From positions 192,001 to 256,000 of the forward strand of contig JAZJZK010000005.1 of NCBI GenBank assembly GCA_040389905.1: a stretch of 64,000 nt of DNA, in the 5' to 3' direction. This DNA is from Gemmatimonadota bacterium (GTDB lineage: Bacteria > Gemmatimonadota > Gemmatimonadetes > Gemmatimonadales > Gemmatimonadaceae). Numbering within the stretch: the stretch's first letter is position 1; each line of letters begins with the position of its first letter. The notes beneath the pieces were generated by a model that was given only the letters and a program-made list of their open reading frames with translations, was not told the origin of the DNA and ran no database searches. Below are positions 41,125 to 54,063 of the stretch, piece after piece. Both the position numbers and the translations under genes were made by a program.

Positions 41125-44100
41125 CTGATCGATCTCCGCATCGCACGCCGCGCATGTGTTGCCGTTGTCGCCTCCGCCGTCGCCGTCACGACGTCGGCCG
41201 TTCTGCCATCCAGCGCATCCGCACAAGGTTCGCTTGCGCTGAATGTTTCGGACAGCGTGCAGCTGTCCGTCGTTCGCGGCCGAACGCTTCGCATTCCGAT
41301 TCTCGTTGTCCCAGCGGGGGGCCTGAGTATTGCCGCGCTCCAGAGCGATGTCATCTTCGGCACGACGCGGCTGCACTTCGACTCACTGACGACCGGCCCG
41401 TTCGGTGTGCTGACGCCGAACACTTCGAACGCCGCATCGGGCGCCCTCGTTCTCAACGCTTCGCGTGGGAGCGGCCAGACGGCGCGCGACACGATCGCAA
41501 ACGTGTTCTTCACCGCTGCCAACGACCGCACGAACGCGCTGTCCTTTGAGAACCTCGGCGGTTCACGAATCAGCGCTGCGCCAACGTCCGCACAGAACGG
41601 AACCGCTGCGAGCATCCTTGCCAGCGTGGTTCCGCGGCAGCTCGATGTCTGCGTCGTGAGCGGAGCATGGGGCGACATGAACGATGATGGCGTCGTCAAT
41701 ATCATCGATGCGCAACAGATTGCCCGGTATTCCGTTGGCCTGTCGGTGGCGAACAATACCGCCGTGATCCAGCGCGGCGATGTAACGGCGGACGGCAACG
41801 TCAATATCATCGATGCACAGCAGATCGCGCGCTTTTCCGTTTCGCTGTCGGCGGTCGCGAGAATCGACACACCGGTGTTCATTCCCGCGGCGGTGGCGAG
41901 CATGACTGCGTCGCCTGGTGGCACGCAGACCGTCGCCGTAGGCGGAATGCAGCAGCTCACCGCAGATCCCAAGAATGCCGATGGCATGTCCGTCGCTGGA
42001 TGTGCACTGGTCGCGTGGTCCACCTCCAATCCCGGCACGGCAACGGTCTCCGCCAGTGGACTGGTGACGGGCATCGCCAACGGAAGCACCGTCATCACCG
42101 CCACGAGCGGTGGGCAGACAGCGAATGTCACCGTCAACGTCGCCCCCACAGGCGGTGGGAGCGTGACTGCAATCGAGTTCGTCGATGACGTAGACCAGTA
42201 CAGCTACACGACTGAAAGTGTCCCCTTTGAGGTGCGAGCCGTGAACGCCGTGGGAGGGACTGTGCCCGGCGCGACCATCACGGTCTCCGTGACGAGTGGA
42301 ACGGCAATACTGTATGGTCCGAGCGGAGTCGTGTCGACGCTGGACCTCGTCACCGACGCGAGTGGTTACGCCACCGCGCCCGTGTACGCCGGCTCTGCCG
42401 GAACGTCCGTCCTCAGCGTCTCTGCGCCGGGCGTCGCTCCCAGAACGGCGTCGCTCACCGCGATCACGCGCTTCCTCGGTCAACACGTCTGCATGGGGAA
42501 CTACTGGTCGATTCGCTGCTGGGGAAACAATTCGCTCGGACAACTCGGCAACGGGACGACGAGCACCAGTATCGACCCCGTGAACGTGAATCTCTCGGGC
42601 ATTGCGCTCGCGCTTCCGCAAACAAAGGTGAGCGTCAGTCAGCAGGGGATTGGCGATCACACGTGCCTGCTCGACGACGCGGGCCAGGCATATTGCTGGG
42701 GTTCGAACACGGCGGGCCAGCTTGGCGACGGCACCCGCGTGAACAAGAGCACTCCGACCGCAGTCAGCACCGCGCTGCGATTCACGACGATTGCGACCGG
42801 TAGCGAACACACCTGCGCGTTGACGAGCGGCGGGGAGATGTATTGCTGGGGTTTCAACTTCTATGGTCAGCTGGGGGACGGCACCAAAACGCGAATTCGC
42901 GTTCTGCCCACGCGCGTCAGCGCACCGGCGGGCGTGACGTTCGCTTCGATGACCGTAGGGACGGCGCACTCGTGCGCGATCGCGCAGACTGGTGCGCCGT
43001 ACTGCTGGGGCTCGAATGCGAGTGGCCAACTCGGCGATGGCACGCAGATCAACCGCGCGCTTCCGGTCGCGGTCACGGGGTCACTGTCACTCAGCTCGAT
43101 GACTGGCGGTGACTCCCACACCTGCGGATTGACCGCGGCTGGCGCGGCATGGTGTTGGGGCAACCGCGCGGCGGGCACGATGGGCGACGGGGGCGGGTCG
43201 GCGTTGTTCCAGCCAGTGCCCACTGCCGTCGCCAACGGTCATGTCTTCCAGTCCATTCACGCTGGTTATCTCTATACCTGTGGAGCGAAGGTCACAGGTT
43301 TGGTTTGGTGCTGGGGGGGCGGGAGCGGCTACGGTCGGTTTGGCGACGGGACGATCATAGCGAACTATGTCGTGCCGACGCTGATTGCATTCACCGGCAA
43401 CGCGATTCACGTGGGAGGATTCAATAGCGCGATTTCCGCCCTGGCCACCTGTGGGTTGACGGAGGTCACGCGGCAGGTGATGTGCTGGGGCAAGAACGAC
43501 CAGGGCTATCTCGGCAACGGGACGACGGATCATAGCACCCTCCCGACCGTCGTGCCGCAGGCCGGTGTCACGGCGGGAACGCCGGGCGCAGTGCAACCCG
43601 TTGTCCCTGTCGTCCCTGTTACGCCTCCGAGCGTCACCGCGGGTACCGCTGTACCACAGTCTCCAGCAATTCTGCTACGCGATCGACTGGGCAATCCGAT
43701 CGTGGGCGCAACGGTCGAGTTCCTGGTGACGGCGGGTGGCGGGTCCGTGGCGAACGCCTCGGCGGTGACGGACGGCGTCGGGCTGGCGAGCAGCGGCACT
43801 TGGACGCTTGGACCGACGCCAGGGTTCAATACCCTCACTGCGCGCGTCTCAGCATTGGCGCCAGGAGGGGCGACAGGTTACGCGCGCCACGTGTTCGCTG
43901 CATTCGGCACGAGCGCGCCCGCGACCATCACGATCGTTGCGGGAAACAATCAGGTGGCGCGCGCCACCCAGACCTATCCAGGCGCGCTGACCGTTCTCGT
44001 GACGGACGCAGCATCCGCGCCGATTCCGAACGTGCCCATCACGTTCGCCATCGGTTCAGTGAGCGGATTGAGCGGGTTGATTGTGTCGAGTCCGGTCCTG

Positions 44101-47100
44101 ACCGATGCTGGCGGTCGCGCGAGCACGTTTGCAAGCTCGGCTTCCTCTGCGCAGTCGTATACGATTACAGCGACGGGCGTCGGCCTCGGCACCGCTACTT
44201 TCACCATGCGTGCGGCGCCGCTCTTCAACAACGGTGTGAACTGCGAATTGACATCCAGTGGTGCGGCGTACTGCTGGGGCTCGAACGATCACGGGCAGGT
44301 CGGTGACGGCACGACGACCACGCCACGGACTTCGCCAACGGCCGTAAGCGGAGGCGTCACCTTCGCCTCGCTCGCAGATGGGTCGGGAGACCACACGTGT
44401 GGTCTTACAATCGCGGGCGCCGCCTGGTGCTGGGGATCGAATGCCTTCGGTCAGCTCGGGGACAACACCATCGTCGATCGGTCGGCTCCAATACTCGTCA
44501 GCGGCGGACTCTCGTTCACGAAGCTCGTCGTCAGCTTCACCAGCACCTGTGGCCGAACGTCCGCCGGCGCGCTCTATTGCTGGGGCAGCGCAGGGCACGG
44601 TATCTACGGCGACGGCGAGCTCGGCACGATTCGCATGACGCCCACGGCAGTAACAGCGGTCGGTCTCGTGTTCAGCGATTTAGCGATGTATGCATCCGCC
44701 TCCGGATCGCACCTCTGCGGATTGGCCGCCGCAGGCGCAGCGTACTGTTGGGGCCTGAACGATGCCGGCCAGCTTGGCGACGGCTCGTTCACGAACCGTC
44801 TCACGCCGACGGCCGTCTCTGGTGGTCTCGCGTTCACGAAAATCGTAGCGGGAGACCGCGTGACGTGCGGGCTCGCAACCTCCGGTCAGGCCTATTGTTG
44901 GGGATTCGGAGCCTCCGGGCAATTGGGCAACAACACAACATCCGTCTCCGCGACGCCTGTTACAGGGGCCACGAACTACAACTTCGTGGCGCTCTCGAGT
45001 TCCGGTGCGTCGGTCTGTGGCATCACGAGTGCTGGGGCGATGTACTGTTGGGGAGCGAACACCAACGGTCAGGTTGGCGACGGGACGCTGGTAAACCGAT
45101 TGCAGCCAACGCGCGTGGAAGGAGGTGTGGCTTTCGGCGCCGTTCGCGCGCGAGTCGCCACGACGTGTGGTCGCGCCGCGGGAGGTGTTGCGCCGGTGTA
45201 CTGCTGGGGCAACAACGTGAATGGTCAGGTCGGCGACTTTTCGGTGGTCTCTCGCGCGACTCCAGTCGTGGTCAGCTGGCCGGAAGGCAGCGCAGGAGTT
45301 CCCGTCTCGCTGGCGATACTCGCCGGGAATCAGTCGGGCTTCGCCGGCGGCGCGGCATCACCAGCACCCTCCGTCGTCGTGCGGGACTATGCGGGCAATC
45401 CGGTGAGCGGCGTGAGCGTGACCTTCACCGTGAGGTCTGGCGGCGGCAGCGTAACGGAGGCGACGGCGATTACCGGGGCGACTGGCTTGGCCACGGTCGG
45501 CAGCTGGGTCTTCGGTGCCGCTGGGCCGCAGACGCTTGCCGCAACAGCGCCGGGCTTGCCGACGGCAATTTTCAGTGCAAGCGCCGCAGCCTTCACCGAG
45601 TCGTCGATTTCATCACTGTACCGGACGGTTTGGGGAGCAACGGCAGGATGCACCGACTGCGTGAATGTCCAGGCGCACGCGCTCGCCGTCGAGAACTACT
45701 CGGCGCTCGCGAACTCCGCGATGAACATCCGCTCAGCCATTCCGCGCGTCGCCATTGGCAATGATCCATCCGAGCCCACAGCCGCGGCGAACTTCTCCAC
45801 CTTCTCCTCGCTCACTGCCGCCGCGCGGACGGCCGCCAATAGTATCCAGGCGTTGAACAGCCTTGCGGGTGCCGGAGGGGGCGCGTCTAACGCATTGGGC
45901 TCAAAGGCGCAGGATGCGCGCGCTCGTGCGTTCGCGTTCTTCAGTTCCGGGCTGGCGCTCGGCAATCTTGCGATTGCGTATGATTCCGCTGCGATCATTA
46001 CGTCGACGACGTCCTCGGCGACCAACCCGCCGTTGTCGGGATACTTCGCCGTCAGCGAGGCGGCGCTTCGCATGCTTGACTCAGCACTCGCGTGGGCAAC
46101 AAGCCCCGACATCACGAGCGGCGCGAATGGATTCCCACTGCCGAGCACGTGGATCAATGGGAATCCGTTGTCGCAAACGCAGTTCGTGGCACTCGTGCGC
46201 GCGCACAAGGCGCGGTTCCGCGCGGGTGTCGCTCGTTCGCCGGCGGAGCGCGCCGCGGTGAACTGGACGCAGGTGATCGCCGACGCGCAGAGCGGCATCA
46301 CGTCGAATTTCGCAGTGACCCTGAACTCGAGCGCTGGTTGGTCACACAGTTCGACGTTCGACGTCAACTTGGCGTACACGTCGGCAGCGTGGCATCAGTT
46401 GAGCATGTTGATGTTAGGCATGGCTGATACGAGCGGTGCGTATGCGAGCTTCATCGCGGCACCGTTGGCGACACGGGATGGGATGTTCCTCGTTCGTACG
46501 CCAGACTTGCGCTTCCCGCAAGGTGCGACGCGCGCCGAACAACAGGCCGACACACCGCCGCTTGTCCCGCTACCCGCGCAACGCTACATCCGGAATCGCG
46601 CGGAGGGCTCGGATGACTTCTCCGGGTTCGCATACGGCCGCTCCTTCTACGATTTCCGTCGATGGCAACTAGTCATTCTGCTGGGCGGAAGCGGACAGTG
46701 GATTCAGATGTCCAAAGTCGAAAACGACATGCTGGCGGCGGAAGGGATGATCCGAACGGGCAACTATGCCAGTGCTGCGTCCTTGATCAACGCGTCGCGC
46801 GCGGCGCATGGGTTGCCGGTGATTACGACGTTCAATAACACCTCACCAGTTCCAGGCGGCAACGCCTGCGTTCCGAAGATTCCCGTCGGACCGGCGTACA
46901 ACACCGTCGCCTGCGGAAACATGTTCGAAGCGCTCAAGTGGGAGAAGCGCATGGAGACGATGTACTCGTGTTCCTTCATGTGCTGGTTCACCGACAGCCG
47001 CGGCTGGGGCGATCTACCTGAGGGCACTCCCGTTCACTGGCCGGTACCGTATCAGGAATTGGACGCCCGCGGCAAGCCGCGTTATCAAATGGCTGGCTCT

Positions 47101-47127
47101 GCGAATAAGGGCGCCTACGGCTGGTAG
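41125..47127 (+). CDS. Tandem paralog of the giant cohesin-dockerin-Ig-RCC1-SusD protein; start codon uncertain
   Basis: Colinear with 35035-41034. The signal-peptide region (LIDLRIARRACVAVVAS...SAQG) lies upstream of the first GTG at 41257; the position matching the paralog's ATG is AGG (41122), followed by CTG (41125). Confidence 0.75.
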   Translation: MIDLRIARRACVAVVASAVAVTTSAVLPSSASAQGSLALNVSDSVQLSVVRGRTLRIPILVVPAGGLSIAALQSDVIFGTTRLHFDSLTTGPFGVLTPNTSNAASGALVLNASRGSGQTARDTIANVFFTAANDRTNALSFENLGGSRISAAPTSAQNGTAASILASVVPRQLDVCVVSGAWGDMNDDGVVNIIDAQQIARYSVGLSVANNTAVIQRGDVTADGNVNIIDAQQIARFSVSLSAVARIDTPVFIPAAVASMTASPGGTQTVAVGGMQQLTADPKNADGMSVAGCALVAWSTSNPGTATVSASGLVTGIANGSTVITATSGGQTANVTVNVAPTGGGSVTAIEFVDDVDQYSYTTESVPFEVRAVNAVGGTVPGATITVSVTSGTAILYGPSGVVSTLDLVTDASGYATAPVYAGSAGTSVLSVSAPGVAPRTASLTAITRFLGQHVCMGNYWSIRCWGNNSLGQLGNGTTSTSIDPVNVNLSGIALALPQTKVSVSQQGIGDHTCLLDDAGQAYCWGSNTAGQLGDGTRVNKSTPTAVSTALRFTTIATGSEHTCALTSGGEMYCWGFNFYGQLGDGTKTRIRVLPTRVSAPAGVTFASMTVGTAHSCAIAQTGAPYCWGSNASGQLGDGTQINRALPVAVTGSLSLSSMTGGDSHTCGLTAAGAAWCWGNRAAGTMGDGGGSALFQPVPTAVANGHVFQSIHAGYLYTCGAKVTGLVWCWGGGSGYGRFGDGTIIANYVVPTLIAFTGNAIHVGGFNSAISALATCGLTEVTRQVMCWGKNDQGYLGNGTTDHSTLPTVVPQAGVTAGTPGAVQPVVPVVPVTPPSVTAGTAVPQSPAILLRDRLGNPIVGATVEFLVTAGGGSVANASAVTDGVGLASSGTWTLGPTPGFNTLTARVSALAPGGATGYARHVFAAFGTSAPATITIVAGNNQVARATQTYPGALTVLVTDAASAPIPNVPITFAIGSVSGLSGLIVSSPVLTDAGGRASTFASSASSAQSYTITATGVGLGTATFTMRAAPLFNNGVNCELTSSGAAYCWGSNDHGQVGDGTTTTPRTSPTAVSGGVTFASLADGSGDHTCGLTIAGAAWCWGSNAFGQLGDNTIVDRSAPILVSGGLSFTKLVVSFTSTCGRTSAGALYCWGSAGHGIYGDGELGTIRMTPTAVTAVGLVFSDLAMYASASGSHLCGLAAAGAAYCWGLNDAGQLGDGSFTNRLTPTAVSGGLAFTKIVAGDRVTCGLATSGQAYCWGFGASGQLGNNTTSVSATPVTGATNYNFVALSSSGASVCGITSAGAMYCWGANTNGQVGDGTLVNRLQPTRVEGGVAFGAVRARVATTCGRAAGGVAPVYCWGNNVNGQVGDFSVVSRATPVVVSWPEGSAGVPVSLAILAGNQSGFAGGAASPAPSVVVRDYAGNPVSGVSVTFTVRSGGGSVTEATAITGATGLATVGSWVFGAAGPQTLAATAPGLPTAIFSASAAAFTESSISSLYRTVWGATAGCTDCVNVQAHALAVENYSALANSAMNIRSAIPRVAIGNDPSEPTAAANFSTFSSLTAAARTAANSIQALNSLAGAGGGASNALGSKAQDARARAFAFFSSGLALGNLAIAYDSAAIITSTTSSATNPPLSGYFAVSEAALRMLDSALAWATSPDITSGANGFPLPSTWINGNPLSQTQFVALVRAHKARFRAGVARSPAERAAVNWTQVIADAQSGITSNFAVTLNSSAGWSHSSTFDVNLAYTSAAWHQLSMLMLGMADTSGAYASFIAAPLATRDGMFLVRTPDLRFPQGATRAEQQADTPPLVPLPAQRYIRNRAEGSDDFSGFAYGRSFYDFRRWQLVILLGGSGQWIQMSKVENDMLAAEGMIRTGNYASAASLINASRAAHGLPVITTFNNTSPVPGGNACVPKIPVGPAYNTVACGNMFEALKWEKRMETMYSCSFMCWFTDSRGWGDLPEGTPVHWPVPYQELDARGKPRYQMAGSANKGAYGW

Positions 47128-47134
47128 TTCGCGC

Positions 47135-48127
47135 TCACAGCACCCCGGCCTTCTTCATGACCGCGAGCGTGCTGTCGAGTGCGAGGCGCGCGCTTTCTTC
47201 TGGCGGCATGGTGTCCGGTATCCGCGGGCCGATGGTCTCCGGCGCTACGCCACCCTGGTAACCGATCGCTTTAAGGGCCTGAAAGAAACCGACAAGATCG
47301 ATAACGCCCTCGCCGGGTAGCCAGCGCATGTCGTCGCGCACGTCTTCGGGCGCCATCGGCCGTGCGTCGGATACGTGAACGTGCACGATGCGCGACGCCT
47401 TCGCGGCGCGGATGTCGGCGACAGTGCCGTCGGAGTGGTACCAGTGCCACGCGTCGAGCGTTACACCAACGTTGGTCCCCGACGCTTCGCAGAGCGCGTG
47501 TGTCTCGCCCAGCGTCCAAATGAAAGGCACCGCAGGATCGGGTGCAGCGCCCGGACGATTGCGGGGCATGCGGAATTGGAGCGGCCCGAGAAACTCGACG
47601 CCCAGCCGCACATCGTGAGGTGCGAGCACCTTCGACAGGGCAGACAAGCGACGCTGCACATGCGTCCAGTGCTCGGCCTTCGGCCGCCCGTTCAGCGTCG
47701 TGGGGCCCAACACGAGTTGGAACAGATCGCATCCGACCGCCCGGCAGAACTGCGCATCCTCCGCGAGCCTCGGTAATTGCGCGTCGAACGCCGCGTCATC
47801 AGCGCCCAGCGGCGCTTGCATCGGCAGGTTGACGGACGTCGGCACGATCGCGAGCTCGGCGAACAGCGCCCGAGTGGCCTCGAGGCCCGCGTTCCGCGCT
47901 GGTGAAAAGGACCAATCGATGCCCTTGTACCCGACGCGCGCTGCCAATCGCGCCTGTTCGGGCCAGCCGACATTCCGCGCGACGGCCCACGGCGGCAACG
48001 ACACGAACATTCCCGTTGGCGCGGTGAGTACGGGGTTCGGCGCCAGTTTCAGGTGCGGCAGGGTAAGCGCTGTGGCGCCGAGCATCGTGCGCGCGAGGAA
48101 TTCGCGTCGATCAATCGTGTTCGACAT
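47135..48127 (-). CDS. Tat-exported sugar phosphate isomerase/epimerase (xylose isomerase-like TIM barrel)
   Basis: DRREFL Tat motif, LGVEFLG, LDAWHW, HVHVSD, PGEGVIDL, GYQG..E. Confidence 0.88.
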   Translation of the reverse strand: MSNTIDRREFLARTMLGATALTLPHLKLAPNPVLTAPTGMFVSLPPWAVARNVGWPEQARLAARVGYKGIDWSFSPARNAGLEATRALFAELAIVPTSVNLPMQAPLGADDAAFDAQLPRLAEDAQFCRAVGCDLFQLVLGPTTLNGRPKAEHWTHVQRRLSALSKVLAPHDVRLGVEFLGPLQFRMPRNRPGAAPDPAVPFIWTLGETHALCEASGTNVGVTLDAWHWYHSDGTVADIRAAKASRIVHVHVSDARPMAPEDVRDDMRWLPGEGVIDLVGFFQALKAIGYQGGVAPETIGPRIPDTMPPEESARLALDSTLAVMKKAGVL

Positions 48128-48220
48128 GGCTATTTCCACCGTTGGTGTGTACGAGTCCAGGCCAGCGATCCAACGAAAGAGTATTTCGCGGCGACGTGCT
48201 CAATGGGGTGGCAAGATGAG

Positions 48221-50620
48221 TCATGTCCGTAGGACCTCCGACGGCTCGATGGTGAGGAACTGCGCGAGTGGCGCGCTCACACCGACCGTCGCGCTCATCG
48301 CGACCGAGACAACGCAGAGCACAATGGACAACCCGAGTGGCGGCGAGGGTGTATTCCTAAAGACACCCCCCAACCTCATCAACACAAGCGCGAATGGAAG
48401 TCCTGCAGCGATGCCGACTCCGACAGCAATGGCGATCTTTCGCATTTCATGAAGTGCAACCTGCACATGAGATCCTCCGACGGCCAGCGAGATGGCAATT
48501 TCGCGTCGTCGATTGGAAATCACACTCAAGCTGGCGCTTGCGATACTCGTCAGGCATGCAACGAGCGAGACCATCGCGCACAACAGGAAGAAGCGCACGC
48601 CGGTTCGCAACGGCCGTAATCGCTCCTCGAAGTCACGTCGAACGGAACGGACAGACTGAACCTGCTCCGGCCCGGCCACCGTCCTGACGAGCTCTTGCAC
48701 ATCCCTCAGAACCTCTGCTGTGGGTCCAAGGGCTCGGAATACGATCCCGTTCGACGCGCGGCGCCCTGTGGAGAGCGGTTCATAGAGCATGATCGGGTTC
48801 TTCAGTCCGGATCCCGACAAGTCCGCATCGTCTACTGTGCCGATGATGGAGATGCATGACCCGTCGGGAACGCCGACTCTCACACACCCGCGCGCCAAGG
48901 CTCGTGGAAAAAATCTGCGCCTTGCGGACTCACTCAGGAGTGCCACATCAGCTCCCGCGCGCCACTGCGCGAAGCCACCGTCGCCAGTCCAGTGAACTGG
49001 AAGCTGCATCACACGAAAGAATGCCGAGTCGACTTGGTGGACTTCTGCTGGCGCGGATTCGGCCGTGGCGGCGGCAATGTAGAGCACTGCCATGCTAAAT
49101 GACCGCGCCGGAAGCGCAGAGACCTCGCTGACACCATCGACTCCCGGACGGCGCTTCAATTCCCTCGAGATATCAGCGAGGAGGCTGCCGCGCGGACTCA
49201 CAAGGTTGGACACCGGCGCAACGCTGTAAACGTGTGCGATGTCGTATCCCCATTCTATTCGACTGGCTGCCCGTAACCGCAGGCTGGAAAACGCCGTCGT
49301 CAGCACGAGCACCGTGACAAGCGAGACTTGGGTGGCGAGAAGGCCATAGGAGGTCCGTGACAGCGTGACCGAACCTAGTCGAGCGGCCTCGAGGACTTGG
49401 CGCAGCTGAACCCGTGATCCGAAGTGGAGGGCGGGCAGTATTGCACTGAGTAGGGCGGCGAGTATCACGACTGCCGTGAAGTAGTTCGTGGTGATCGCGC
49501 GTCCACCATCCCACAGACCAAAGGTGTCAATCGCGATTCTACCAAGGAAGAGTCGTTCAAGGCCTAGCCCCACGAGCGAGCCCATGGCAACGGCAACCAG
49601 CCCGGCGACGCTGGACGCCATCACAACTTGTGCTGGGGTTGCTCCGTGCACTTCGTGCAACAACCATTTGTGAGAGGACGCGAGTCGTTGCAACGCGAAG
49701 AGTTGCGTGGTGTTCGAAATGAGAAGGAGTGCCAGACAGATGGACGTCAGCACGGACATCAAGAGCAGACTCGCTTTCAGGTCGCGCTCAATCCCGAGTG
49801 ACATGTTGAGGGGACGAAATCGCAGGGACTTGATATCGAAATCGACCTCGTTCGACGCAAGGCGACTCTGGAGGACGTTGATGGTCCTTTGCGCGTCGCC
49901 GCCACCGGGATAGCGAGCGACGGTGCGAAGCCACTTTGCGTTGCCGGTTAGCCACACTGCGGGAATGCCGATGGCGTCCGCTGACTCGAGTGGAATGAAC
50001 AGGTCGGCAGGTTGCGCATTAATGCCTCGGAAGTCCCTGACCACGGCCTGCACAGTCCATGGTATTCCATTGACACGGACAATCGCGCCGAGCGCCGACT
50101 GGGGCGAGGGAAAGGTCCTTCGGACAAAGTGCTCCGAGACAATTATTGCACGGCGCTCGTTCCGCCACCGCATGGGACCCGCGAGGCTGGTACTTCCAAG
50201 GAGGCTCAAGAAACCCTCCGATACGACGGCAAGTTCCTCCTCCTCTGGACCCGCCGTGCCCACCGAGACGATGACGGACAGGGAGCCATAGGCTTCGACA
50301 CCAGTCAGGACGTCCACGGCCGCATGGCGCATGGCGTCGACTTCCACGCGGGAGAACGAAAGCGACGAGACTGGAAACGCTTCCCGCCCGTGAATTGCCG
50401 AAATTCGTTTCAGACTGCTCGCGTCCTTGACGCCAGGAATGTTCGGGTCGAACACGAGCATCGCCACGTCAGTCACCGCAGTGAACACTGCGATGCACAG
50501 CGCAGCGAAGAGGGCGACGTACGCGCCGAACAGCACGCCGCTATATCGGTCGGCGACCAGCGTTGGCCAATAGCCCAAAGCCCTACGAAACGTCATTCCG
50601 GCATCTCTTGCCAGCGACAC
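48221..50620 (-). CDS. Duplicated MacB/FtsX-type (ADOP-like) permease, divergent
   Basis: Two periplasmic-domain plus TM halves; VSEGFLSLLG, IVSEHF, RRREIAISLAVGG, IEPSEVLR. No ATPase gene adjacent. Confidence 0.75.
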   Translation of the reverse strand: MSLARDAGMTFRRALGYWPTLVADRYSGVLFGAYVALFAALCIAVFTAVTDVAMLVFDPNIPGVKDASSLKRISAIHGREAFPVSSLSFSRVEVDAMRHAAVDVLTGVEAYGSLSVIVSVGTAGPEEEELAVVSEGFLSLLGSTSLAGPMRWRNERRAIIVSEHFVRRTFPSPQSALGAIVRVNGIPWTVQAVVRDFRGINAQPADLFIPLESADAIGIPAVWLTGNAKWLRTVARYPGGGDAQRTINVLQSRLASNEVDFDIKSLRFRPLNMSLGIERDLKASLLLMSVLTSICLALLLISNTTQLFALQRLASSHKWLLHEVHGATPAQVVMASSVAGLVAVAMGSLVGLGLERLFLGRIAIDTFGLWDGGRAITTNYFTAVVILAALLSAILPALHFGSRVQLRQVLEAARLGSVTLSRTSYGLLATQVSLVTVLVLTTAFSSLRLRAASRIEWGYDIAHVYSVAPVSNLVSPRGSLLADISRELKRRPGVDGVSEVSALPARSFSMAVLYIAAATAESAPAEVHQVDSAFFRVMQLPVHWTGDGGFAQWRAGADVALLSESARRRFFPRALARGCVRVGVPDGSCISIIGTVDDADLSGSGLKNPIMLYEPLSTGRRASNGIVFRALGPTAEVLRDVQELVRTVAGPEQVQSVRSVRRDFEERLRPLRTGVRFFLLCAMVSLVACLTSIASASLSVISNRRREIAISLAVGGSHVQVALHEMRKIAIAVGVGIAAGLPFALVLMRLGGVFRNTPSPPLGLSIVLCVVSVAMSATVGVSAPLAQFLTIEPSEVLRT

Positions 50621-50644
50621 GAGGGCGAGCCAGCGGTCGCAGCT

Positions 50645-51658
50645 CTATCGTGTCGACGGATGAAGCTCGGAGATATAGCGCCCGTGAAGCACGAAGAGCC
50701 GCTTGCCCTTCGCGGCAATCCAGCGGGACACCCATGGCAATTCGTACGAGCCCACGTACTTACCGGAATGAATCGAATAGCGGTCGATGACACGCTTCGC
50801 CAGCGTGCGGTCCTTGCCGGCGTAGAGGACCACAACCTCGGTATCGCGCAATGCGATGGAGACCGCCGTCTGAACCGCGGCACCAAGGATCTCGTCTGTC
50901 TTCCTGGCCTGGGTGCGCCGAATCACATCGGGAAAGTTCGTCGATTCGATGAATCGTCCGCGAGTCAGAGCACCCGCGCTGGTGTCGAGTACGACAAAGC
51001 CGTCGCCAAAGGCAAAGCCAAAGACCCAATGCTCGAGCCTGTCGTCGGTCGCCGTCCATCCCTGTCTCATAAGAGGGCGCAGCGCCGAAAAATCGGCGGA
51101 GGGAAATGCGTTACGGGACAGCCGTTTTCCCTGATTGTCAAAAATCACGAGAGGCGCCGCGGAGTCGGTGGTCACCGCCGCAAAGCGATTGCCGGTGAGC
51201 GGAACAAACGCATCAATGTCATCGACCCCGAACGGTGAGATACTGCCACCGGTTCGGCCTCTGGGGTCAACGGTGATGAGGCGATTCGCGCCCACGAGCG
51301 CAACAAGTGTGTCGTGCCCCGTAGTCGTCAGACCAAGGAGCGGGCTCTCTTCTGCGGCGCCAATGTCCGTTCCCCACAGCCGCCGACCATTCTTGTCGAG
51401 GGAGGTAATCCGGGTCCTTCCTTCGAGAAACGCGAAACCCTGATCGGTAGCAACGAGATGTCTCATGGTGCGATAGGTGGTGTCCGATCCAGGAACCGCA
51501 ATCGAGTCGAACGTCGTGCCGCTGAATACTCGATGAGCGGAATCGCGCGTCGAAGTCTCGTGAGGGGCCCGTACCACGCTGACGCGTGCTGACTCGCGTT
51601 CGCACGAGACAACCGCCAGTCCACCTACAAAGAACAGCCTCAATATTCTAGGAGCCAT
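50645..51658 (-). CDS. Beta-propeller lipoprotein (6-bladed/TolB-like)
   Basis: GAGGA ribosome-binding site; lipobox LAVVSC; blade motifs LDKNG, VDPRG, FDNQG, IDRYS..SGKYVGSYELP. Confidence 0.65.
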   Translation of the reverse strand: MAPRILRLFFVGGLAVVSCERESARVSVVRAPHETSTRDSAHRVFSGTTFDSIAVPGSDTTYRTMRHLVATDQGFAFLEGRTRITSLDKNGRRLWGTDIGAAEESPLLGLTTTGHDTLVALVGANRLITVDPRGRTGGSISPFGVDDIDAFVPLTGNRFAAVTTDSAAPLVIFDNQGKRLSRNAFPSADFSALRPLMRQGWTATDDRLEHWVFGFAFGDGFVVLDTSAGALTRGRFIESTNFPDVIRRTQARKTDEILGAAVQTAVSIALRDTEVVVLYAGKDRTLAKRVIDRYSIHSGKYVGSYELPWVSRWIAAKGKRLFVLHGRYISELHPSTR

Positions 51659-51759
51659 GTGATCGCTTCCTCGGTTTGTCTGGCTAGCTAAGAGCGTACC
51701 GCATCGCATCCAGGCACACTCAACGCGAGGCATGTGGCATCCCAATATGCCTTCCTCCG

Positions 51760-52308
51760 TCACGGACCTTTTCTGGCACTCAGCGTCTCGATAAAGGAAT
51801 CTGCTGGCGTCTCACTTCCCGGGAGTATCGTCCGGAGAACCAGTCGCTCATCAAAGAGCAGCGTGACGGGAAGCGACGCAACGCCGAGGAGCGCGAGTGA
51901 GTGCCCCACCTTGCGCTCGGTCAGGGCTCGCACAGGGAAGTGGAAGCCGTAGGAGGCGATGATCTCGTCGGCCGGCACCTCCTCCCTTTCGCCGATGATA
52001 AGGATGCCTTGTACGTCGGCCCGTCTGCCTCTGCTGACGACGTTCCATCGATCAATAATCTCGAGTGCTCCTGGGCAATCACCGGCGCGAAAAAGAAAGA
52101 TGATATGCGGTCGCGATTCGGCCACGCCGGAAGAAGGCTGGGCGAGAAGGCTGGAAATCGGACGACCCAATCCGATCACCTGTTGGCGGAGGATAATGGC
52201 TTCCGCCAAAATGGCAATGACAGCAACAACGCCTACGGCCGTCGAAAGGCGCATTAGGACAGCATCTTTCGCCGCTGAGCGCTGAGCGCCGGATCCGAGT
52301 ATCGACAT
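51760..52308 (-). CDS. Membrane-anchored thioredoxin/peroxiredoxin-like protein with a single Cys
   Basis: N-terminal TM segment; IIFLFRAGDCPGA at the CxxC position; FHFPV; LGVASLPVTLLFD cis-Pro loop. Start may be 52254. Confidence 0.6.
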   Translation of the reverse strand: MSILGSGAQRSAAKDAVLMRLSTAVGVVAVIAILAEAIILRQQVIGLGRPISSLLAQPSSGVAESRPHIIFLFRAGDCPGALEIIDRWNVVSRGRRADVQGILIIGEREEVPADEIIASYGFHFPVRALTERKVGHSLALLGVASLPVTLLFDERLVLRTILPGSETPADSFIETLSARKGP

Positions 52309-52367
52309 CAACCACAGAACTGGTTAGCGTGCCCCGCTGGCAACAGGCGTACTCAACTGGTCGCCTT

Positions 52368-52415
52368 GCAAGCGCGACCGCATCCCGAGCAGGTGGTGCG
52401 TGCGGTCGCGCTTGC
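52368..52415. terminator. Strong hairpin downstream of the peptide genes (attenuator or mRNA stabiliser)
   Basis: Perfect 15-bp stem GCAAGCGCGACCGCA / TGCGGTCGCGCTTGC, 18-nt loop, no U-tract. Confidence 0.55.
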
Positions 52416-52443
52416 GAAGTGAGGGTTCCCCGAGCAGAGGAAG

Positions 52444-52668
52444 CTAGAACATGGTGTAGTAATCCGTAAACGTGACCCACTGATCACAGACGCCATTCGA
52501 CACGTGGCTGCAGTAAGTCGACGTCCTGCACTTCTTGAGGATACCGTCCGCACAGGAGTCCTCGGCCTTAAGGATGCTCCGCGACGAGAACGAAGGCACA
52601 GCCAGAACCGCTCCCGCCACCGTAAGGACTACGAAACTGAACTGCACCAGACGCTTAAGTTGCGTCAT
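52444..52668 (-). CDS. Secreted 4-Cys peptide A (74 aa)
   Basis: GAGG ribosome-binding site; signal peptide ending ILKA; EDSCADGILKKCRTSTYCSHVSNGVCDQWVTFTDYYTMF; paralog adjacent. Confidence 0.85.
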   Translation of the reverse strand: MTQLKRLVQFSFVVLTVAGAVLAVPSFSSRSILKAEDSCADGILKKCRTSTYCSHVSNGVCDQWVTFTDYYTMF

Positions 52669-52744
52669 TGCCGACCTCGGGTAGATGATGGTACTCAATG
52701 CCACGGCCGTTCCACACACGTTGTGTGCGTCTCGCTGGCGCGGA

Positions 52745-52966
52745 CTAGAACATCGTGTAATAGAACGTGAGCGTGGTATAACCTTGGCAGACACCGTTGT
52801 ACCACTGAGCGCAGCTGGTCTGTTCACGGCACTTCTTCAGCAAGCCGTCAGCGCACGAGCTGTCAGCACGGAGCTCCTGCTTTTGAGATACAGCTGGCGC
52901 AATCGCGATCGCACTGATTGACGCGGCGAGCGCCAGCGTGATCGAAAGCCCCTGAATTTTAGTCAC
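52745..52966 (-). CDS. Secreted 4-Cys peptide B (73 aa)
   Basis: AGGAG ribosome-binding site, GTG start; signal peptide ending ELRA; DSSCADGLLKKCREQTSCAQWYNGVCQGYTTLTFYYTMF. Confidence 0.85.
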   Translation of the reverse strand: MTKIQGLSITLALAASISAIAIAPAVSQKQELRADSSCADGLLKKCREQTSCAQWYNGVCQGYTTLTFYYTMF

Positions 52967-53030
52967 TCTCGCTCTCTCCTGTTTAGAGTCAGTAAACGCG
53001 TCTTACCACCGGGCGCCTTTGGTAGCCGCG

Positions 53031-53060
53031 ATTGTAATGCCCCGGATCCACTTCTGTCAA
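53031..53060 (-). promoter_or_regulatory. Near-consensus sigma70 promoter of the peptide operon
   Basis: Minus strand TTGACA (53060-53055)-N18-TACAAT (53036-53031), about 65 nt upstream of peptide B. Confidence 0.7.
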
Positions 53061-53325
53061 GGAACCGTTTCTTCCCCCAAGTAAAATGTTAGAATGAGAT
53101 GACCGATCCTCCGAGAGCCGTCCCGCGTGTAGTTGATGCTCAAGCACTGGCGCCTCCAATCGCTCCCGGGATCCCAAAAACAGTCGCGATGGGCTCGGGC
53201 TCGAGCTCATAGATGGCGCAGGGGAACATTCTCCAATGGACTTGAGTTTCATCACCCTCAGGACTTACAATGGATCAGGAGGCCGCTAGGTCCCAACCTC
53301 ACGTGCCGATCACCGGAGAAGCAGT

Positions 53326-53574
53326 ATGTCTGACGGGCTAGTTCTTCTTATCGCATTCTGTGCGCTCGTAGCGCTGAATAGCATCGTCAAGGTAGTCGTG
53401 GCCATACTTTCTCAGCGACGTGACAAGGGCGTCGCCGTTCTCGAGGCGGAGATCAGGCGCTTGTCCGAGCGGGTGCGAGTGCTCGAGGAGTATCGAGAGG
53501 GTAGCGAGGCAGAAGTAGAGAAGTTGAACGATGCCAACGTGTTCCTGGAACGGCTACTGGCGAATCGTGACTAG
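53326..53574 (+). CDS. Small single-TM protein with coiled coil
   Basis: GGAG ribosome-binding site; hydrophobic N-terminus; LEAEIRRLSERVRVLEE heptads. Confidence 0.6.
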   Translation: MSDGLVLLIAFCALVALNSIVKVVVAILSQRRDKGVAVLEAEIRRLSERVRVLEEYREGSEAEVEKLNDANVFLERLLANRD

Positions 53575-53676
53575 TGTCCTGATTAGAAGGTTGCCAACGA
53601 GGACGCCGAGCCATTCTGGTTGGGCAAGGAACGGCTGTGGAAATCCCCCAAAGCGTCACGCGAGTCCGCCTACAAT

Positions 53677-53710
53677 ATCCCAACTCTGGACAAATCCCAA
53701 CTCTGGACAA
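53677..53710. repeat. Perfect 17-bp tandem duplication
   Basis: ATCCCAACTCTGGACAA twice. Confidence 0.85.
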
Positions 53711-54063
53711 CCGGCGCCCGCGCAAGTGGTGTGGGTCTCTGCTGAGGGCGCGCCAGTGAGTATTTCCTGGCCAAGGCCTTGCGGGAAGGTGATGGCGTTT
53801 CTAGAACGCAAGAACACTTTTGACCGCGCTTCACGGCGCCTGCTTAATGGAATATCCTGGAGTGTGCCACACCTTCCCAGGCTCTTTCAGCCGGGGCGGC
53901 ATTGCGCACAGAGTCGAGTACCGAGGTCGACGCGCATGTGATTTCTGCCGCCGGTGTCGCATTCCTCGGCTATCCGACGTAGTGATTCCACATTTCATCG
54001 AAACCCGCTGTCGTCGAGCGTTGCACCGTGCGTTCGTGAGGGCACGACCCTCACGAGCCCACC

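Follow-up and report, generated by a model that had tools for sequence, protein, structure and literature searches.

What is the role of two tiny genes for exported four-cysteine peptides that lie next to genes for envelope proteins in the genome of a member of the Gemmatimonadota? This question is raised by the segment 48221..53060 of a 64,000-nt stretch (hereafter the window) of contig JAZJZK010000005.1 from a Gemmatimonadota bacterium (assembly GCA_040389905.1); all coordinates of the segment are window-based. According to the ORF (open reading frame) list, the segment carries five co-oriented genes on the minus strand, encoding two peptides (pepA and pepB), a thioredoxin (Trx)-like protein, a beta-propeller lipoprotein and a permease of the ADOP type. 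Here we provide evidence that the peptides, the Trx-fold protein and the propeller travel together across the Gemmatimonadota, and that the conserved unit is this trio rather than the five genes. The trio is undescribed in the literature searched, in which we found no paper on the peptide family or on the trio, and none naming NVEALA or DUF5128.

A conserved trio of genes

The distribution of the trio was followed in a phylum sample of 401 Gemmatimonadota genomes and in a second set of 78 propeller loci, taken from a species-representative collection. A search starting from the peptides gave 38 matches in 27 of the 401 genomes. In 29 of the 30 peptide loci that were cut from these genomes, a Trx-like and/or a propeller gene accompanies the peptide gene, and in the thirtieth such a pair is located approximately 1.6 kb away. 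There are two further peptide places, one of them at the end of a contig and the other a weak match (E 3e-5).

The same association is seen from the side of the propeller. Loci with relatives of the propeller were found using an 11-row alignment (a 26-row alignment had no conserved stretch), whose patterns are specific to Gemmatimonadota, and the search therefore says nothing about other phyla. A propeller relative is present in 47 of the 401 genomes. By name, the relatives found with the alignment belong to the Gemmatimonadota, i.e. Longimicrobiales, Palauibacter and metagenome-assembled genomes (MAGs) named "Gemmatimonadetes bacterium". The Trx-like gene is placed directly upstream of the propeller gene in 33 of the 78 loci, and an overlap of 1–4 nt between the two genes is frequent among the loci collected first. 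A peptide profile built from collected loci found matches in 17 of the 33 loci with a Trx-like gene, compared with none of the 45 loci without it. Moreover, other leader-bearing, cysteine-rich small ORFs on the same strand were recognized by eye in 16 of 20 Trx-bearing loci lacking a profile match. The number of peptide genes per propeller varies, from one to two or more. No other neighbouring family occurs in more than 6 of the 48 distinct loci. The initial annotation of the window had proposed, as a check, to see whether the same three partners recur beside the peptides: the Trx-like protein and the propeller do so, while the permease was found with the trio in two loci only. In the genus of the window organism, one other of 36 genomes contains a clear pepA match (G008, E 1.6e-6), which is situated beside a propeller.

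Two further observations concern the propeller genes. In three loci of Longimicrobiales (L056, L058 and L059) between four and six paralogous propeller genes stand in tandem, with neither a Trx-like gene nor peptides detectable with the profile. In addition, two loci labelled "Gammaproteobacteria bacterium" (L088 and L151) encode propellers that share 61% and 29% identity, respectively, with the query from Longimicrobiales. One of the two is on the same contig as a genome placed in the Gemmatimonadota (L076); these MAG labels are probably wrong.

The peptide family

The gene pepA (52745..52966, minus strand) encodes a 73-aa precursor, in which a Sec-type leader is followed by a core of 39 aa that contains four cysteine residues (Cys38, 46, 52 and 60) and a YYTMF tail. 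Its neighbour pepB (52444..52668, minus strand; the ORF extends to 52827) encodes a 74-aa paralogue with the same cysteine framework. The two sequences share 31 of 70 residues (44%, E 4e-21), and both genes are preceded by ribosome-binding sites, AGGAGA 8 nt before the GTG of pepA and GAGG 6 nt before the ATG of pepB, in agreement with the initial annotation, which described two tiny paralogous genes with good sites of this kind.

In an alignment of 25 family members (A4), three of the cysteine columns are invariant and the fourth is kept in at least 90% of the rows. The consensus of this alignment is C-x7-C-x5-C-x8-C-x5-YY, and the framework of the family can be written as C-x7-C-x5-C-x7/8-C followed by an aromatic YY tail. 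The hydrophobic leader ends with [VLI]-x-A, one to five residues ahead of the first cysteine. Judging from this alignment, the leader of pepA would be cleaved after LRA to give the 39-aa core, and the cores proposed earlier for the two peptides agree with this leader end. The reduced masses and isoelectric points (pI) calculated for the cores are 4484 Da and 6.1 for pepA, and 4476 Da and 4.75 for pepB.

When the peptide profile was run against the whole 5.08-Mb genome (50,980 ORFs), it recovered pepA and pepB only (E 1e-14 and 3.5e-14), the next match having an E value of 0.35. Among 1.84 billion representative sequences it detected 221 clusters at E <= 1e-3 (22 of them at E <= 1e-10), nearly all 64–115 aa in length. 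The C-C-C-C-aromatic pattern is kept by 139 of the 149 listed members (window pepA excluded), 84 of which have the spacing 7/5/8, and exactly four cysteines are present after residue 25 in 122 of the 149. The major subfamily reads roughly C..N.SC...LFF.QCTT.Y.YY. Thus the peptides, which had been proposed to be exported by the Sec pathway, are members of a recurrent family with Sec-type leaders and four conserved cysteines. Their genes are duplicated and diverge rapidly outside the cysteine framework.

The earlier statement that the peptides belong to no named family is also borne out: none of the 25 members scanned has a convincing match to any Pfam or NCBIfam model, and none matches NVEALA (PF14055) at E <= 1. 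The annotations of ten clusters that were checked consist of no name or of "hypothetical protein". In the searches made, the family was found in Gemmatimonadota genomes and among unlabelled metagenome proteins. A word-indexed protein search with pepA returned pepA itself only, and the best score of an Atlas search with the same query (0.76) is under the level of a usable lead. Some family peptides (L060:3796-4011, P0036 and P0045) are extended by a Gly-rich linker and another small domain, which ends with C.WGRDY.G.EPR.C and contains two extra cysteines.

A Trx-like protein with a single cysteine

The Trx-like gene (51760..52311, minus strand) encodes a 183-aa protein, whose predicted fold is of the TlpA/ResA type. 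Its translation may start at ATG 52254, since the gene call in the database (164 aa) points to a later start. Structures of this protein and of the propeller were modelled with AlphaFold using family alignments. The model of the Trx-like protein (pLDDT 83) consists of an N-terminal helix (residues 9–47) followed by a thioredoxin fold, and the long helix suggests that the protein is anchored in the membrane by its N-terminus. Foldseek matched the model to ResA (E 3.2e-6, prob 1.00), and then to CcmG, DsbE, DsbF and StoA; the structure rows of the Atlas gave TlpA/Redoxin proteins (TM 0.54–0.67), while the sequence profile matched PDB entry 3eyt (E 1.6e-4).

The active site departs from the canonical one. 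Cys79 is the only invariant column among 17 aligned relatives, and there is no second cysteine. This residue is placed between strand 69–75 and helix 82–94, i.e. at the position of CxxC in thioredoxins, and the residue three positions further on is A, R, S, L or M in the 17 sequences. Pro148, at the cis-Pro position directly before strand 149–153, is nearly invariant. The name "thioredoxin-like" used in the initial annotation therefore stands for the fold, which is evident from the predicted structure only, and not for the CxxC motif. Having one cysteine, the protein is no classical dithiol oxidase and cannot donate disulfides. A peroxiredoxin reading of the one-cysteine protein was considered and rejected: no Thr or Arg is conserved beside the cysteine, Cys79 and Pro148 being the only conserved residues.

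In sequence searches the family is nearly invisible. None of the 17 members matches the thioredoxin-type Pfam models (Redoxin, AhpC-TSA, Thioredoxin_x) at E <= 1, and the NCBIfam ResA model matches the window protein at E 0.047 only. A word-indexed search with the Trx alignment returned 14 proteins, none of which has a Pfam domain or any name other than "hypothetical". Three overlong ORFs of the Trx type were also noted (L119, L123 and L130), in which no anti-sigma or other Pfam domain was found; the ORF of L119 looks spurious.

The propeller lipoprotein

The third component of the trio is a six-bladed beta-propeller lipoprotein of the NHL type (50645..51658, minus strand), identified from the model and the family profile. 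The ORF extends to 51763 (372 aa), but the start codon is probably ATG 51658, situated behind GAGGAA; with this start, the Trx-like and propeller genes are 105 nt apart in the window. The leader (MAPRIL...VVSC) includes a lipobox, whose sequence was read directly as MAPRILRLFFVGGLAVVSC; in propeller relatives the lipobox consensus is L..AC and its cysteine is nearly invariant.

The model (pLDDT 85) has six blades, and VIA-align superimposes 256 of its residues on the NHL domain of Brat with an rmsd of 3.5 (Z 22.5). With the family profile, solved NHL domains are matched at E 1e-42, and PF01436 (NHL) is weakly matched by 11 of 26 propeller members. Other structural matches include NHLRC2 (6gc1, Z 15.5), SOQ1 (7djk, Z 16.4), PAL (Z 19.2), phytase (Z 20.3), lactonases and LDLR/LRP. 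Within the family, Glu and Asp residues are invariant and the motif PYVEHT.FP is conserved; the window protein does not retain the His of this motif. Of the 26 propeller relatives, 16 weakly match DUF5128 (PF17170) at E <= 1 (best 3e-7), while the window propeller has no match. Hence the earlier hint at the NVEALA peptides and six-bladed propellers of Bacteroidetes was reasonable as regards the propeller, and fails for the peptides, of which 0 of 25 match NVEALA.

Used alone as a pattern query, the window propeller gave 249 pattern matches and no relatives. In a two-chain complex prediction of the propeller (residues 22–337) with the pepA core (residues 35–73), both supplied as alignments, the scores were 0.44, 0.03 and 0.10 (mark 0.32), which counts neither for nor against an interaction.

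Organization of the locus and its surroundings

The positions given in the initial annotation for the five co-oriented genes, for the promoter-like site and for the 15-bp hairpin were all confirmed. The sigma-70-like promoter (TTGACA-N18-TACAAT; 53031..53060, minus strand), located upstream of pepA, is a candidate identified by consensus match only: it fits 11 of 12 consensus positions, and the region contains 4 promoter-like sites, compared with 1.6 +/- 1.1 in shuffled sequences.

The GC-rich hairpin (52368..52415, minus strand), between pepB and the Trx-like gene, has an uninterrupted 15-bp stem and no U tract; the whole-segment z for the hairpin region is -2.4. In 9 of 14 loci, a stem of at least 10 bp is found after the peptide gene that comes last on the upstream side; among random 130-nt windows drawn from these loci the figure is 49 of 560. 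The contrast is overstated because the compared loci are related. A recurrent hairpin after the peptide genes fits with a larger amount of peptide message than of machinery message.

No RiPP (ribosomally synthesized and post-translationally modified peptide) enzyme family was matched among the five genes and their two neighbours in Pfam and NCBIfam scans, as the initial annotation had stated for classical enzymes of this type. In the same scans, the two peptides, the Trx-like protein and the propeller of the window all remained without a match.

The permease gene (48221..50620, minus strand), which starts 25 nt downstream of the propeller gene, encodes a 799-aa ADOP-type protein, i.e. a duplicated MacB/FtsX permease, with the architecture MacB_PCD + FtsX and with no peptidase or ATPase domain. 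It matches TIGR03434 over model positions 18–801 of 803 with 159 bits, under the curated cut-off of 622.3. The genome contains at least 17 full-length ADOP paralogues; 15 other genes pass the TIGR03434 cut-off and more are found below it. An ADOP permease adjoins the trio only in the window and in locus L057, and the possibility that these form a module-specific clade was rejected, since the two copies are not mutual closest relatives. The linkage in two loci only, the relationship of the copies and the many paralogues all indicate that the permease is a local addition. It should thus be regarded as accessory and not as a conserved partner, and in this respect the earlier view of a MacB-like permease as part of the system is not upheld. 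Genes of these kinds occur at C7:271599-279361 and on other contigs, among them a tandem run of six shorter FtsX-type genes on C7.

The G+C content is 0.57–0.60 across 48001–54000, compared with 0.62–0.65 in the flanks; together with the rarity of the trio in the genus, this is a hint of horizontal acquisition. In an empty-site test, 11 genomes of the genus were compared around the orthologue of the TIM-barrel gene that lies downstream; no other neighbour from the window was found within 1.5 kb of this orthologue, and the test revealed no usable empty site.

Two other ORFs of the window deserve mention. An 82-aa ORF (53326–53574, plus strand), divergent from the promoter region of the operon, has a hydrophobic N-terminus and a coiled-coil-like tail, and gave noise-level family matches only. 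A 1956-aa ORF (41257–47127, plus strand), read in the ORF list, contains a dockerin-like repeat, "D.N.DG.VNIIDAQ", in two copies and an RCC1-like one, "CWG.N..GQLGDG", in many, as well as a long C-terminal region.

A putative module for peptide disulfides and the alternatives

The redox equipment of the same genome is informative as regards the possible role of the trio. A gene for a DsbA-like protein (Thioredoxin_4) directly adjoins a VKOR gene (C23:174972-175972), and the genome also has two genes of the DsbD/CcdA type; no DsbB was found in the assembly, which is 85% complete. The DsbA-VKOR pair is likely to be the general disulfide-forming pair of this organism, and general disulfide formation therefore does not need the Trx-like protein of the operon. 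It is well known that one-cysteine variants of protein disulfide isomerase (PDI) or DsbC keep isomerase activity. We propose that the trio is an envelope module in which the Trx-like protein and the propeller correspond, in split form, to NHLRC2 and SOQ1, two proteins with fused Trx and NHL parts, and isomerize or hold the disulfides of their own exported peptides. In our judgement this proposal is evenly poised between being right and being wrong.

According to this model, the peptides would be exported by the Sec system and cleaved by signal peptidase just ahead of the first cysteine, after which the general DsbA-VKOR system of the genome would oxidize their four cysteines. The single nucleophilic cysteine of the Trx-like protein would then attack the peptide disulfides, forming a transient mixed disulfide, and so act as a shufflase or holdase, while the propeller would bind the aromatic core or tail of the peptide and present it, as in NHLRC2/SOQ1. 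The hairpin could keep the level of peptide mRNA above that of the machinery mRNA, and in this genome the ADOP permease might export the finished 4.5-kDa peptide or protect against it.

Several observations weigh against the proposed isomerase or holdase module. The single cysteine would also suit a role without catalysis, in tethering or sensing. With pI values of 6.1 and 4.75, the mature peptides are neutral to acidic, unlike typical cationic antimicrobial peptides, and the rather good conservation of the major peptide subfamily suits a structural or partner role as well as a diffusible product. The window propeller is divergent, as it is devoid of the GRxGxGPGE motif present in blade 1 of the family and has no Pfam match of its own. 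Furthermore, partner genes are absent from the 3.4 kb on either side of the weak peptide match (E 3e-5), and the hairpin counts come from related loci, with coding regions overlapping some of the 130-nt segments.

How should the trio be explained, if not by disulfide handling? The peptides might be an extracellular or periplasmic cue, such as a pheromone or a signal of envelope or redox state, and the propeller lipoprotein and the one-cysteine Trx-like protein its receptor rather than maturation machinery. NHL and YWTD propellers commonly bind ligands (e.g. the PknD sensor, and LDLR/LRP among the structural matches), the lone cysteine could serve as a redox sensor, and duplicated peptide genes that diverge fast outside the cysteine framework would suit a signal; yet no regulator, kinase or sigma factor is conserved beside the trio in the 48 distinct loci, none is present in the window operon, and the overlong Trx-type ORFs L119, L123 and L130 are without an anti-sigma or other Pfam domain, so we consider such a receptor unlikely. 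A stable complex, in which a propeller enzyme would have the peptides as small subunits, as inhibitors or as carriers of a cofactor and the Trx-like protein would serve for assembly only, has a parallel in methylamine dehydrogenase and quinohemoprotein amine dehydrogenase, whose cysteine-rich light subunits are seated on propeller subunits. The well-conserved core of the major peptide subfamily, the invariant Glu and Asp residues and PYVEHT.FP motif of the propeller, and the enzymes among its structural matches (PAL, phytase and lactonases) would all be in keeping with this. However, neither the five genes nor the 48 loci include a MauG, radical-SAM, flavoprotein or heme partner, the number of peptide copies is variable (one to two or more per propeller), the window propeller lacks the His of PYVEHT, and the hairpin and gene order suggest that the peptide exceeds the propeller in amount; the existence of such a complex seems to us quite improbable.

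Leader-bearing cysteine peptides in the periplasm are also reminiscent of the bufferins, which are exported by the Sec pathway, and might buffer a metal (copper) with their cysteines, kept reduced by the Trx-like protein. Two of the 25 family members do faintly match the BufA2 bufferin model, but at noise level (E 0.076), there is no MNIO/DUF692 enzyme among the five genes or in the 48 loci, a one-cysteine Trx fold cannot cycle alone as a reductase, and the genome has an oxidizing DsbA-VKOR system; metal buffering thus appears very improbable. As for the suspicion that the small ORFs are not genes at all and that their position is due to chance, high-GC DNA is indeed rich in spurious ORFs. Nevertheless, the leader, the four cysteines and the aromatic tail are conserved across 221 clusters, the two profile matches among the 50,980 ORFs of the genome both fall at this locus and both have ribosome-binding sites, and the linkage to partner genes is near-total (29 of 30 loci), which leaves this explanation with hardly any credibility.

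The proposed disulfide module can be extended to a bolder form, which we put forward as doubtful, though worth stating. The trio may be the ancestral split form of the NHLRC2/SOQ1 Trx-NHL machine, with its substrates encoded alongside, and may thus act as a dedicated extracytoplasmic disulfide isomerase or chaperone for peptides; the aromatic two-disulfide peptides, with their more than 200 clusters, would then represent a new class of envelope or secreted effectors.

Significance and comparison with known systems

NHLRC2 is essential in humans and is mutated in FINCA disease, while SOQ1 controls photoprotection in plants. If the disulfide-handling proposal is true, the trio would offer a simple bacterial system for testing the job of the Trx-NHL pairing with its own substrates. 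The peptide family comprises 221 clusters (E <= 1e-3), is covered by neither Pfam nor NCBIfam, and may include bioactive or signalling peptides of a new kind. The trio also adds a Trx-fold family with a one-cysteine active site, which escaped detection in Pfam scans of all 17 members. A system of this general kind, i.e. a secreted cysteine peptide with a dedicated Trx-fold partner, is already known; what is unusual here is the obligatory NHL propeller, the one-cysteine active site and the unnamed peptide family.

The closest structural analogues are NHLRC2, which occurs in animals and some bacteria, and SOQ1, from the thylakoid lumen of plants. These proteins resemble the trio in combining a TlpA/DsbE-like Trx fold with a six-bladed NHL propeller, and the SOQ1 pair is, moreover, extracytoplasmic and membrane-anchored. 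In SOQ1 the redox motif is located at a stable Trx-NHL interface (10.1101/2021.03.16.435614). In NHLRC2, conserved residues line the cleft between the Trx domain and the propeller, which the authors read as a ligand site, and who found no conserved neighbours for the bacterial homologues (PMC6107167). The trio differs from both proteins in having two separate genes, one cysteine instead of CC(I/V)NC, and no C-terminal DsbD-like beta domain. It also encodes candidate substrates, i.e. the peptides, alongside, whereas NHLRC2 and SOQ1 are not known to have direct substrates.

Among bacteriocin operons with a dedicated thiol oxidoreductase, those of the bacteroidetocins (class IIf) are the closest functional analogue for which data exist; they share with the trio a four-cysteine peptide and a dedicated thiol partner. 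In these systems the gene for a four-cysteine peptide of ~40 aa adjoins that for a thiol oxidoreductase, which the producer requires for activity (PMC6671954). The bacteroidetocins have a 15-aa double-glycine leader, a peptidase-domain ABC transporter and a five-TM (transmembrane) protein, and no propeller. In contrast, the trio has a Sec-type leader, no C39 transporter, a one-cysteine Trx fold and an NHL propeller.

A likeness in gene arrangement is found in Bacteroidota, in which NVEALA genes neighbour those for six-bladed propellers: in the NVEALA/DUF5128 neighbourhoods small exported proteins adjoin six-bladed propeller lipoproteins, as they do in the trio. Another likeness concerns AGR2, a one-cysteine (CxxS) member of the PDI family, which is reported to bind a TTIYY peptide motif, of the Thr-Thr-x-Tyr-Tyr type (PMC5880107). 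Many of the peptides described here carry C-T-T-x-Y-x-Y-Y/W after the last cysteine, and the Trx fold of the trio likewise has a single active-site cysteine. Unlike the components of the trio, AGR2 is a eukaryotic protein of the endoplasmic reticulum, and the resemblance of the motifs, in our opinion a coincidence, is best taken as a lead only.

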